DNA of 64,000 nucleotides from an uncultured Planctomycetota bacterium (GCA_963845755.1 CAWJTV010000030.1:32001-96000); one strand, 5' to 3'. Shown: positions 20,642-23,168, counted from the first letter of the stretch. Notes: generated by a model not told the origin, from the sequence alone. Translations and numbers: made by a program.

Positions 20642-22140
20642 GAATGCCACGAAGTTAGTGCACAAATCCTGCCTTCTAAACAAGTTGTAGCATCTTGAGC
20701 AAAGGAGGGGCTCCGGGCAATCTGGTGGTAGGTCCCAGCCACCCTGACCCCGAAGGAGCCCTCCCGTGCCGGTACGGATTGTCACCATCTTGGGCCGTCT
20801 CAAGCAAGACCTCGCCGACGGGCTTTCTCGCGAGGCCATCGAGCAGGCATGCAAGCAGGAGAAATACTCGTGGCGCCAGCGGATGCTCGATCCGGTCACG
20901 ACCGTCTATCTGTTTATCCTCCAGATCCTTCACGGCAACACCGCCTGTTCGCACGTGGTCCACTTCGGCCGATGGAACTTCACCGATGCCGCCTACTGTG
21001 CCGCGCGGAAGCGGCTCCCCCTGGCGGTCCTCCGCCGCCTTGCTGCGCGGATCGCCGCGAGTGTCCGGACGGCGACGACGGCCCAATCGACCTGGCACGG
21101 CCACCGGGTCTGGCTCCTCGACGGGTCGAGCTTCTCGATGCCCGACACCCGCGAGCTGCAGGAGGCATTCGGCCAGCCCAGCGGCCAGCGGCGGGGATGC
21201 GGCTTCCCGGTCGCCAAGTTTCTGGCACTCTTCGACCTGGCCACCGGCATGCTCCTGCGGGTCGAGCCGGCGCCGCTCCGCTCGCACGAGATGGCGCGAT
21301 CTCGCCGTGGCCACCTCCGCTCTGAACCCCGGCGACATCGCGCTGGGTGACCGCGCCTTTTGCTCATACGCTCACCTGGCCATCCTCCTGAACCGCAAGC
21401 AGCACGGGGTCTTCCGGCGCATCAGCGCCAGATCATCGACTTCACTCCGGGTCGGCCGCAGGCGGTGCGGGGCAAGGGGAAGAAGCCGCACGAGGCAAAG
21501 ATCCGTCCGCATTCGCGGTGGGTGCTCTCGCAGGGCGAATCCGATCAAGTAGTCATCTGGTCCAAGCCCAAGTCTCATCCGAGATGGATCACCAAGGATG
21601 AGTATGCGTCACTGCAAGAAGAGATCGCGGTGCGTGAGCTGCGATATAAGGTCTCGACGCCGGGATACCGTGTCGGCGAGGTGACGCTGGTGACGACGCT
21701 CCTGGACGCGTCGGTGTACCCGGCGGAGGCGCTGGCGGATCTGTACTTCCGGCGATGGCAGGTGGAAGTTTATCTGAGAGACTTGAAGATCACGTTGAAG
21801 ATGGATGTGCTGAAGTGCAAGACAGTGGATGGCGTGTTGAAGGAGCTGGCGGTCTTCGCCCTGGTGTACAACCTGGTGCGATCGGTGGCGTGCCAGGCGG
21901 CGCAGGCTCAGGGCGTGGCTGCGGACCGGGTGAGCGTGACCGACGCAGTGCGATGGCTGGTGGGCGCCGAAGGGGACGAGGATCTGTCGGTGATCTTGAC
22001 CGTCCCCAAGCGGAAGGGTCGATTCGAGCCGCGCGTCAAGAAGCGCCGCCCGAAACAGTACGATCTGATGACCAAACCCCGCAGAGAACTACGTAAAGAG
22101 CTTCTGGACAACAAGGTTGCAGCTTAAATTCGCGGCATTC
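20642..22140 (+). mobile_element. IS4-family insertion sequence
   Basis: IRL GAATGCCACGAAGTTA and IRR reverse complement GAATGCCGCGAATTTA (14/16); 11-bp target duplication CCGTCCGTCCC at 20631-41 and 22141-51. Confidence 0.92.
20766..22127 (+). CDS. IS4-family transposase (frameshifts near 21300 and 21417)
   Basis: WHGHRVWLLDGSSFSMPDT, GDRAFCSY, LVTTLLD, YFRRWQVEVYLRDLK (YREK motif), EPRVKKRRPK. Confidence 0.9.
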
Positions 22141-22767
22141 CCGTCCGTCCCCTCATCGACACAACTTCTCGGCCACTAAAGTAATTTCAATGACCCAGAC
22201 GCATTCACCTCGTCGATTCGTGCTCTCTCCTTCGAGTTGTTCAGAAATGAGACCGCCTCGTCAAATGCGCCGATGCATTAGATGATTAATGATAACACCT
22301 GGTAAGTCGTCGAGAACGGTGCCAGTCAAAAAAACTAGGATGGCAAAGGTGACTTGGATTTGACGTAAGTCGTTATTCCTCGGTCGGACCGCCGACCATC
22401 GCCAAAGGACTTACGGCGATTCCCAGCGACTTTTGCCATCCTAGAAAAAAACCATGACCATTCGTCTTTCTTCTTGACACAATACACCCACCCACTCGTT
22501 CTACGTCGCCGGCATTGACCCACTTCCCTACGGCTGCACACACAGTATTCGTCGGTTCGGGCCATCCCTTCGTCATCGGGTCAAGGTCGCAGTCATCCCA
22601 CCAGGTCTTATGATCGATCCAGGAACCAGTCAGGGGAGTTATTGCTCACCTTGCGTGGTCTATTGGGGTGATGACAAGACCGGATGATCTGGGGTGGCTA
22701 ACAGAAATCCCCGGATTTCCAGGGGCCTTGAGGCTTCATGACGCGTTCCGACTTTCCGAATCGCGAA

Positions 22768-23168
22768 TGACCGGGGAGGGACTCGAACCCTCGACCAACG
22801 GATTAACGTACCTCATCGGCTTTCACCGACCACCGCAACCCGCGCTCGACCGCCAGCGGCCAAACGCGGAGCTTACGGGTTGAAAGTCTGGACTATCCCT
22901 TCGCCATCGCAGGCGTGCCGCGTCTAGTCTCTGGGGCTGAGGCCGGTTCATCGCCGGTCCCTTGCCTGCTGATTACCCAATCCGCTGTCTTTTCGGACCG
23001 TCACGCTTGCCGTTACCGGCGACGTTGTGGTGCCAGCGGCTCTGAGGGCGTCCCAGCATACTGCGGCATGCACTCATCGCGGTTCGGTTTCTTCCCGCGT
23101 GAGGCTCCTCATGACTGCCTCCCGACAGTCTCCAAAGTCCGTTGCTCTACCGACTGAGCTACCCGGTC
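22768..23168 (-). tRNA. tRNA-Lys(UUU), intron-containing: exon 1 23168-23135, exon 2 22806-22768
   Basis: Joined exons GACCGGG TA GCTC AGTCGGTA GAGC A ACGGA CTT|TTAA TCCGT TGGTC GAGGG TTCGAGT CCCTC CCCGGTC A form a perfect 73-nt cloverleaf with discriminator A73; CCA is not encoded. Confidence 0.93.
22807..23134 (-). ncRNA. Group I self-splicing intron, 328 nt, no homing endonuclease ORF
   Basis: P TATGCTGGGA, Q AATCAGCAGG, R CCAGAGACTAGA, S AAGGGATAGTCC; P3 TGCCGC/GCGGCA, P4 TGCTG/CAGCA, P7 GACTA/TAGTC; 5' exon ends in U, intron ends in G. Confidence 0.93.

Follow-up and report, generated by a model that had tools for sequence, protein, structure and literature searches.

The window analysed here is a stretch of 64,000 nucleotides (nt) from an uncultured soil planctomycete, and coordinates are given as positions within it. 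On its minus strand, from 23168 to 22768, lies a transfer RNA (tRNA) gene in two halves. We read this locus as the housekeeping gene for tRNA-Lys(UUU) in a member of the Isosphaeraceae, with a group I intron of 328 nt that carries no open reading frame (ORF) inserted between the wobble base U34 and U35, and put the probability of this reading at roughly 0.88. The insert is a genuine member of an ordinary, known kind of element and involves no new mechanism. The gene is laid out as follows.

23135..23168, minus strand: 5' exon of tRNA-Lys(UUU), 34 nt, with the acceptor 5' strand, the D arm, the anticodon stem 5' strand and C32 U33 U34, ending in GGACUU (ARAGORN on the joined exons)
22807, minus strand: terminal G of the intron (omega G), pre-tRNA position 362, directly 5' of the 3' splice site, invariant in 30/30 relatives
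22768..22806, minus strand: 3' exon, 39 nt, starting with UUAAUCC, with U35 U36 A37 A38, the anticodon stem 3' strand, the variable loop, the T arm, the acceptor 3' strand and A73 (ARAGORN on the joined exons)

The insert between the two halves occupies 23134-22807 (minus strand), begins with U and ends in GGUACG. The exons were joined by script and submitted to ARAGORN, which returned a 73-nt tRNA-Lys(ttt) with all stems paired and the loop CU-UUU-AA. A cloverleaf with the anticodon UUU, the discriminator A73 and orthology to uninterrupted tRNA-Lys(UUU) genes all point to this identity, which had been proposed in the preliminary description of the locus and is borne out. CCA is not encoded at the tRNA 3' end. 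Named records with the same split gene are Isosphaeraceae (Planctomycetota), in agreement with the planctomycete host proposed earlier; these records also define what is called the family below.

The splice junction was examined in an alignment of 30 family copies (A1). In all of them the 5' exon ends in CUU and the 3' exon starts with UUAA. The first intron base varies (C 22, U 6, G 1, A 1), and the last is G in 30/30 with a variable base before it. The junction is placed at U34^U35 because this is the sole site that satisfies both intron ends. The 5' exon is invariant or nearly so across the 30 relatives. Uninterrupted genes provided an independent view. All six loci fetched from sister families are uninterrupted tRNA-Lys(ttt) genes with the same anticodon arm, and within the family itself the genus g192 has an uninterrupted tRNA-Lys(ttt) in four of five genomes tested. 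One g192 intron-free gene is identical, letter for letter, to the joined exons of the window, matching the 5' exon with its 5' part and the 3' exon with its 3' part. Flanking DNA and a neighbour gene are syntenic at that locus, and the alignment blocks abut at 22806 and 23134. The g192 locus is an 'empty site' at the orthologous position and independently fixes the splice junction. Thus the U34^U35 junction first suggested from the single sequence agrees with both intron-end rules and with the empty site.

The fold of the intron was evaluated by covariation. A hand-drawn model with 89 pairs was laid over A1, comprising P1, P2, P3, P4, an extended P5, P6/P6a, P7, P8 and a terminal hairpin, with the tRNA stems as internal control. 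A second alignment (A2) added 13 more distant copies, giving 43 sequences, and was restricted to the core (50 pairs). In A1, 98.5% of 2661 cells were standard pairs, compared with 31-42% when the 3' partners were slid by 1-3 columns. Compensatory change was found in 21/89 pairs, and 0/500 shuffles reached any of five measures. In A2, 95.8% of the cells were paired, with compensatory change in 26/50 pairs. The core helices P3-P8 occur in canonical order, each 83-100% paired (slid controls 31-45%), and compensatory change is present in P3, P5a, P5b, P6a, P7 and P8. Both crossing helices of the P3/P7 pseudoknot are supported. In the tRNA itself, the T stem and pair 27-43 covary by the A1 pair counts. 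The thermodynamic centroid of the single sequence yields the same helices without comparative input (z = -2.37). Pair counts and the unaided centroid therefore both confirm the P3, P4 and P7 pairing that had been noticed by eye. The elements of the intron are listed in transcript order.

23134..23137, minus strand: P1 5' strand, formed by C32, U33, U34 and the first intron base, which pair with G64, A63, G62 and G61
23113..23130, minus strand: variable hairpin in the P1 loop (centroid fold)
23105..23108, minus strand: internal guide GGAG, the P1 3' strand; G61 G62 A63 G64 invariant, G62 wobbling with U34
23073..23103, minus strand: P2 stem-loop, 8 pairs, 93.2% of cells paired, 1 compensatory pair; present in the centroid fold
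23063..23068, minus strand: P3 5' strand, pairing with 22916-22921, 100% of cells paired
23053..23058, minus strand: P4 5' strand ('P' element), pairing with 22967-22972, invariant in 43 sequences
22976..23048, minus strand: P5 and its extension, with P5, P5a, a GNRA-capped hairpin (GUAA 23016-23013) and the A-rich single strand GAAAAG (covariation)
22967..22972, minus strand: P4 3' strand ('Q' element), partner of 23053-23058
22935..22966, minus strand: P6 and P6a; P6 invariant, P6a with 3 compensatory pairs
22925..22931, minus strand: P7 5' strand in the conserved CAGAGACUA ('R' element), pairing with 22890-22895 across P3
22916..22921, minus strand: P3 3' strand, partner of 23063-23068
22902..22915, minus strand: P8 hairpin, 4 pairs, one of which changes from G-C to A-U in 3/30 (A1) and 11/43 (A2)
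22890..22895, minus strand: P7 3' strand in the conserved AUAGUCC ('S' element), partner of 22925-22931
22832..22878, minus strand: long variable hairpin of the P9 region (centroid fold), differing in length and sequence among relatives
22815..22830, minus strand: conserved terminal hairpin with a GAAA tetraloop, 6 pairs, 99.4% of cells paired

Three P1 pairs are constant in A1: C32-G64, U33-A63 and the U34.G62 wobble each occur in 30/30. The fourth, between intron base +1 and G61, is CG in 22, UG in 6 and unpaired in 2. The distance from the splice site to GGAG ranges from 9 to 43 nt among relatives. Compensatory change affects 3/6 pairs of P3 in A1 and 4/6 in A2. All 6 pairs of P5a show it, the P5b stems covary, and the tetraloop of the P5 extension is GUAA, GCAA, GCGA or GUGA across the alignment. 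The extension, with its GNRA hairpin and A-rich strand, is presumably closer to the P5abc of IC1 introns than to what a minimal IC3 intron has. P7, with its bulged A, is invariant save for a covarying last pair (AU 27, CG 11, GC 4, UA 1 in 43 sequences). The closing pair of the terminal hairpin is U.G in 20, C-G in 9 and U-A in 1 of the 30 copies. No ORF of at least 90 amino acids (aa) is present within the intron, and therefore it holds no homing endonuclease gene.

From these elements a conventional splicing route can be proposed. Transcription of the minus strand would yield a precursor of about 401 nt, in which the intron would fold into a P1-P9 group I core. C32, U33 and U34 would pair with the GAG of the guide GGAG, and the U34.G62 wobble would mark the 5' splice site, where free guanosine is predicted to attack after U34. 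The terminal G (22807) would then occupy the same site, and the 3'-OH of U34 would attack after it, so that the exons are ligated to a 73-nt tRNA with the loop CU-UUU-AA. As to history, an intron without a homing endonuclease gene would have been inherited vertically in the family as a single copy and precisely removed in the genus closest to this genome.

Contigs of sequencing runs were searched for traces of this process. Soil metatranscriptome contigs (X2, X17, X18) cover the intron core of this family at 85-99% likeness; these are community contigs with possible DNA carry-over, and they speak neither for nor against expression. No exon-exon joint was found in the contigs of three metatranscriptome runs and one run recorded as 'DNA?', in which tRNAs are poorly captured. 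In one X17 contig of <95% likeness, position 22809, 3 nt short of the intron end, is followed after 5 additional letters by 23109, which lies immediately 5' of the guide. Such a joint is as expected of the excised, circularised intron of a relative, and we take it as a hint only.

Several observations weigh against our reading. The Rfam group I model RF00028 has no match in the window at its gathering cut-off, none in segments of 951 nt and 341 nt at E <= 10, and none at this locus in a search of the whole genome. It also matches 0/6 named Isosphaeraceae copies at E <= 1 (Singulisphaera acidiphila, Tautonia, Paludisphaera, Aquisphaera, Tundrisphaera and one metagenome-assembled genome, MAG). 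P10 is weak and not conserved: counted from the guide motif GGAGCC, contiguous pairs between the 3' exon and bases 5' of GGAG number 0 in 7, 1 in 15, 2 in 6 and 3 in 2 of the 30 copies. Intron base +1 is U in this copy, which permits a second U.G beside the splice site, and the 5' site could thus be less sharply defined here than in the 22 relatives with C at +1. Finally, a second tRNA-Lys(ttt) with an atypical D arm is predicted in the same genome (C20:432005-432076), and the cell may not depend strictly on splicing.

The Infernal check with RF00028 that had been suggested for this copy was hence negative, and group I membership rests on covariation and on homologues for that reason. The gathering cut-off of 50 bits is a detector threshold and not a defining property. 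RF00028 does score homologous loci: of 20 examined, 14 gave 45.9-76.6 bits and 13 exceeded the cut-off. The 14 are all 10 Acidobacteriota-type introns tested (53-77 bits), three 'Ca. Kuenenia stuttgartiensis' loci (54-57) and an unclassified MAG (45.9). These homologues share a 26-base core pattern and align with the window intron over the whole core. With a covariance model of the intron core built from this family (R1), the window reaches 209.8 bits. The model also recovers an RF00028-validated intron elsewhere in the same genome (contig C44; 12.8 bits, E = 0.024), whose P4, P6 and R element align in register. On a 150-genome sample of the phylum, R1 returned four other introns at 27-45 bits, which by eye lie in an apparent 23S ribosomal RNA, a tRNA with CAU anticodon, a tRNA-Arg(UCU) and one unplaced setting. 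Judged by its covarying structure and by homology to introns that RF00028 scores, the insert is a group I intron, and the assignment made at the outset holds on these grounds. The Isosphaeraceae intron clade is a blind spot of RF00028, whose seed contains 12 sequences and no bacterial intron (Williams 2020, bioRxiv 10.1101/2020.01.27.920355). At gathering thresholds no Rfam model reports anything on the window. The weak matches listed (plastid 3' untranslated region, small nucleolar RNA, mascRNA, Y RNA-like) are confined to the T arm in the 3' exon; they were rejected as tRNA-like noise.

The alternative that survives best accepts the group I fold and holds that splicing in the cell needs a protein cofactor or chaperone, or a pre-formed tRNA body for exon alignment. 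P10, weak or absent in most relatives, speaks for it. Both splice sites lie next to the covarying anticodon stem, which may help to align the exons. The elaborate periphery, with the P5 extension and two GNRA loops, could mean self-sufficiency or dependence. Classical IC3 tRNA introns self-splice in vitro. The intron encodes no maturase or other ORF, and nothing points to a specific cofactor. The classical tRNA introns belong to IC3 (Williams 2020), which likewise argues against such a need. On balance we consider this unlikely.

The distribution of the intron bears on the other alternatives. When 61 related genomes were searched at the DNA level, 32/36 family genomes contained the full exon-intron-exon unit, at 74-91% identity; the 24 genomes of other families matched the exons only, in contiguous form. 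The split unit is not a product of chance, because it recurs at this identity in 32/36 family genomes. With R1, the intron was detected in 101/121 family genomes from 47 genera, including 44/47 high-quality ones, nearly always once and at 163-216 bits. It is single-copy in the present genome. Among the 20 family genomes without it, 8 are all the sampled g192 members; the others are scattered, and most of these are incomplete.

In a different reading the intron is a dead relic and the split gene a pseudogene, and AAA is read by the tRNA-Lys(UUU) of the C20 cluster. The presence of that second predicted gene and the failure of RF00028 to recognise the intron would fit. A dead gene would decay, however, and here exons and core are conserved with compensatory changes in 101 genomes of 47 genera. 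The C20 copy, moreover, has an atypical D arm and stands among clustered, accessory-looking tRNAs: it is one of four adjacent tRNA genes, and contig C20 has another run of five at a distance of about 18 kb. We regard a relic as very improbable. The preliminary description had supposed that the split gene might be the only UUU tRNA, so that decoding of AAA would depend on splicing. The first point fails on the C20 prediction. The second is weakened by it and shown only in part. No close uninterrupted paralogue of the split tRNA-Lys(UUU) exists in this genome. AAA makes up about one fifth of lysine codons (1748 AAA against 6925 AAG), a crude count from long open frames on three contigs that includes non-coding frames. 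Across the 14.27-Mb assembly ARAGORN makes 102 tRNA calls, of which some are clearly false.

That the insert is a transposable insertion or an assembly artefact, as a DDE transposase fragment about 640 nt downstream of the tRNA might suggest, is refuted by distribution and structure and has next to no chance: the insert is single-copy, lacks terminal repeats and ORFs, has a covarying ribozyme core and occupies the same position in each of 101 independent assemblies, some of them complete genomes from cultured strains.

Annotation programs handle the locus poorly. ARAGORN at default settings reports no tRNA in the whole window, and the Rfam tRNA model reaches 16.8 bits on the locus against a cut-off of 29. 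With the -i option, ARAGORN finds the correct outer ends, forces the intron to 37/38 and makes a poor tRNA-Pro(tgg) call. Relatives are labelled Pro, Asn, Lys, Leu, Ser and others, and this output is unusable for isotype or junction. The expectation that standard annotation would miss the gene was therefore correct; the proposed check with ARAGORN -i succeeded for the outer ends and failed for isotype and intron position. For many relatives the program prints 'Asn gtt, intron at 34', which corresponds to a junction one base earlier, after U33, with the terminal G as an exonic base and a tRNA-Asn(GUU) product. This junction is contradicted by the intron-free orthologue and we give it practically no credence, as it would leave a variable base instead of G at the intron end, A73 speaks against tRNA-Asn, the uninterrupted orthologues of sister families and g192 read UUU and not GUU, and the genome has separate tRNA-Asn(gtt) genes. 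According to its description in PMC8450103, tRNAscan-SE 2.0 was not designed for group I intron detection. Given this design, and with ARAGORN and Rfam missing or mis-calling the gene, genomes of the family will seem to lack a normal tRNA-Lys(UUU). Surveys seeded with RF00028 will in turn undercount such introns, since a whole clade is invisible while its cousins score well.

The history of the intron was approached with a maximum-likelihood tree of a 494-aa RpoB fragment (28 rows, rooted by six outgroup genomes). The family forms one clade against the outgroups (100/99). Genus g192 is sister to the genus of the present genome (95/89), inside an intron-bearing clade (100/97). The simplest reading of this one gene fragment, with its outgroup root, would be that the intron was gained once, long ago, then descended vertically and was lost precisely in g192.

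To follow the lineage further, an exact scan with the 26-base core pattern was made over one genome per species and returned 112 loci. By motif rules, 89 are tRNA-Lys(UUU) genes split as CUU/N..NG/UUAA and 21 are tRNA-Lys(CUU) genes split as CUCU/U..G/UAA; 2 are cut by contig ends. The 21 tRNA-Lys(CUU) assignments comprise 15 by rule, three by reading the ends (L040, L051, L089) and three by junction enumeration (L121, L127, L138). The last procedure gave tRNA-Lys(ctt) with loop position 4 and is permissive, returning many false isotypes at each locus. Beyond the family the lineage has a patchy distribution: a few other MAGs have it in tRNA-Lys(UUU), and Acidobacteriota in tRNA-Lys(CUU). Two records labelled Terriglobia (L054) and Thermoplasmata archaeon (L114) carry an Isosphaeraceae-type split tRNA-Lys(UUU); these contigs are probably mis-binned or mislabelled. 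A second, weaker R1 match occurs in two genomes (G206:C184:18760-18921, 69.2 bits; G224:C67:174279-174444, 54.9 bits) and may represent related introns in other genes.

The tRNA-Lys(CUU) introns of Pyrinomonadaceae and other Acidobacteriota have the identical 26-base core pattern, the GGAG guide and an alignable P3-P8 core. In contrast to the family intron, they are inserted at U35^U36, one base further 3', and have a shorter P5 extension, a longer P8 and an AT-rich sequence. In tRNA-Lys(CUU) the first G of GGAG wobbles with U35, whereas in tRNA-Lys(UUU) the second G wobbles with U34 and the first pairs with intron base +1. Both sets belong to the same intron lineage, and the splice site follows the wobble along the guide. 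The introns labelled 'Ca. Kuenenia stuttgartiensis' and that of the unclassified MAG (L095, L124, L130, L091) also lie in tRNA-Lys(UUU) at the same site and share the P5 extension, including its GNRA loop and A-rich strand. They differ in the guide, which is AGAG and lets U+1 pair with A so that U34 alone can wobble, and in their RF00028 scores (45.9-57.2 bits).

The C44 intron mentioned above interrupts a second tRNA gene of the same genome (C44:86791-87153, L149) and scores 70.7 bits with RF00028. By reading, this gene has the anticodon CAU and is split as CUCAU/...G/AA by a 359-nt intron; ARAGORN -i gives a 357-nt intron and mis-calls tRNA-Gln(ttg). The split may explain why just 2 default tRNA(cat) calls were obtained. 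The two introns share a genome and the element kind, and P4, P6 and the R element are in register under R1. They differ in that the C44 intron uses site 36/37, the classical Ile2.5Ug or Azoarcus-type setting, is recognised by RF00028 and has marginal similarity to the Lys intron.

Against the published record, the window intron resembles the bacterial tRNA introns of Williams 2020 in its anticodon-loop site, the U-1/terminal-G rule, the lack of an ORF and a length of a few hundred nt. In the nomenclature of that work it would be 'Lys.3Ug', and its loop position is that of the cyanobacterial tRNA-Leu(UAA) intron (CUU/a...g/AAAA). Unlike the phase I introns there, for which an RF00028 score of 18-20 bits was needed, this clade lies below RF00028 detection. 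The main text of Williams 2020 names the classical settings Leu.3Ug, Arg.5Ug, fMet.2Ug and Ile2.5Ug, all IC3, and adds 17 new bacterial tRNA intron settings, raising the number from 4 to 21. 'Lys' and 'Planctomyc' are absent from that main text, which leaves the naming of the new settings to a table or figure. The passages of PMC11915505 that bear on the subject treat tmRNA introns only. We found no paper on a group I intron in tRNA-Lys or in planctomycetes, in a search that missed most subscription journals. The novelty claimed at first is therefore doubtful in view of the 21 settings, even with no planctomycete or tRNA-Lys case found, and the intron has probably been catalogued already at the 'Lys.3Ug' level. 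The additions made here are the failure of RF00028 to see this clade, the vertical distribution of the intron across the family, its clean loss in g192 and the one-nt shift between lysine isoacceptors.

A more far-reaching interpretation is an undescribed case in which a sub-lineage invisible to RF00028 has been kept vertically in the sole housekeeping AAA-reading tRNA of nearly the whole family, its site having moved between 34/35 and 35/36 by a sliding U.G on an unchanged GGAG. We consider this doubtful. If true, it would offer an experimentally tractable case of how a group I intron changes its site, with the intron-free sister genus as a natural control, and could show any gain to the cell from keeping the intron, such as a GTP-linked control over how AAA is decoded. 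Carriers exist in culture (Singulisphaera, Paludisphaera, Tautonia, Aquisphaera, Tundrisphaera), among them Singulisphaera acidiphila DSM 18658, with the locus at NC_019892.1:3860122-3861377. These carriers, together with a clean-loss genus and a sister intron one nt away, form a compact system for the study of splice-site choice and intron loss.

The surroundings of the gene were also inspected. A terminator-like hairpin was picked up by a consensus scan that gave 2 sites against 1.3 expected from shuffles.

22709..22724, minus strand: weak terminator-like hairpin with a U-rich tail, 44 nt downstream of the tRNA (consensus scan)

Synteny with relatives ends at the tRNA 3' end (22766), as expected of an integration hot spot, and the transposase fragment past this end (21360-22127, plus strand) matches PF01609 at 35.2 bits. 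In a sister species (L155, G001:C17:418000-433300), the last 6 intron bases and the 3' exon recur as a 45-nt repeat 14.7 kb downstream of the split gene. The DNA in between encodes ResIII, an endonuclease and an N6_N4 methylase, which form a type III restriction-modification set, as well as two tyrosine recombinases. A genomic island seems to have entered the split tRNA gene here, at an attachment site to which the intron contributes sequence. Another locus (L156, G008:C14:327700-330700) has a 67-nt repeat together with a Fic/DOC gene 2.4 kb away. In intron-free g192, one genome (L161, G257:C215:7992-11030) contains an extra 39-nt copy of the tRNA-Lys(UUU) 3' part (query 28-66, 100% identity), where no tRNA is called; it may be another attachment-site repeat.

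The genome of the window also contains dense groups of tRNA genes. Thirty-six are tightly packed at C41:590256-593662, many of which lack U8 and have unusual D arms. The region C20:431840-451106 has two smaller clusters, which include a tRNA-Ile(tat) and the atypical tRNA-Lys(ttt). tRNA arrays of such a kind are described in PMC4758250 and PMC8421152.

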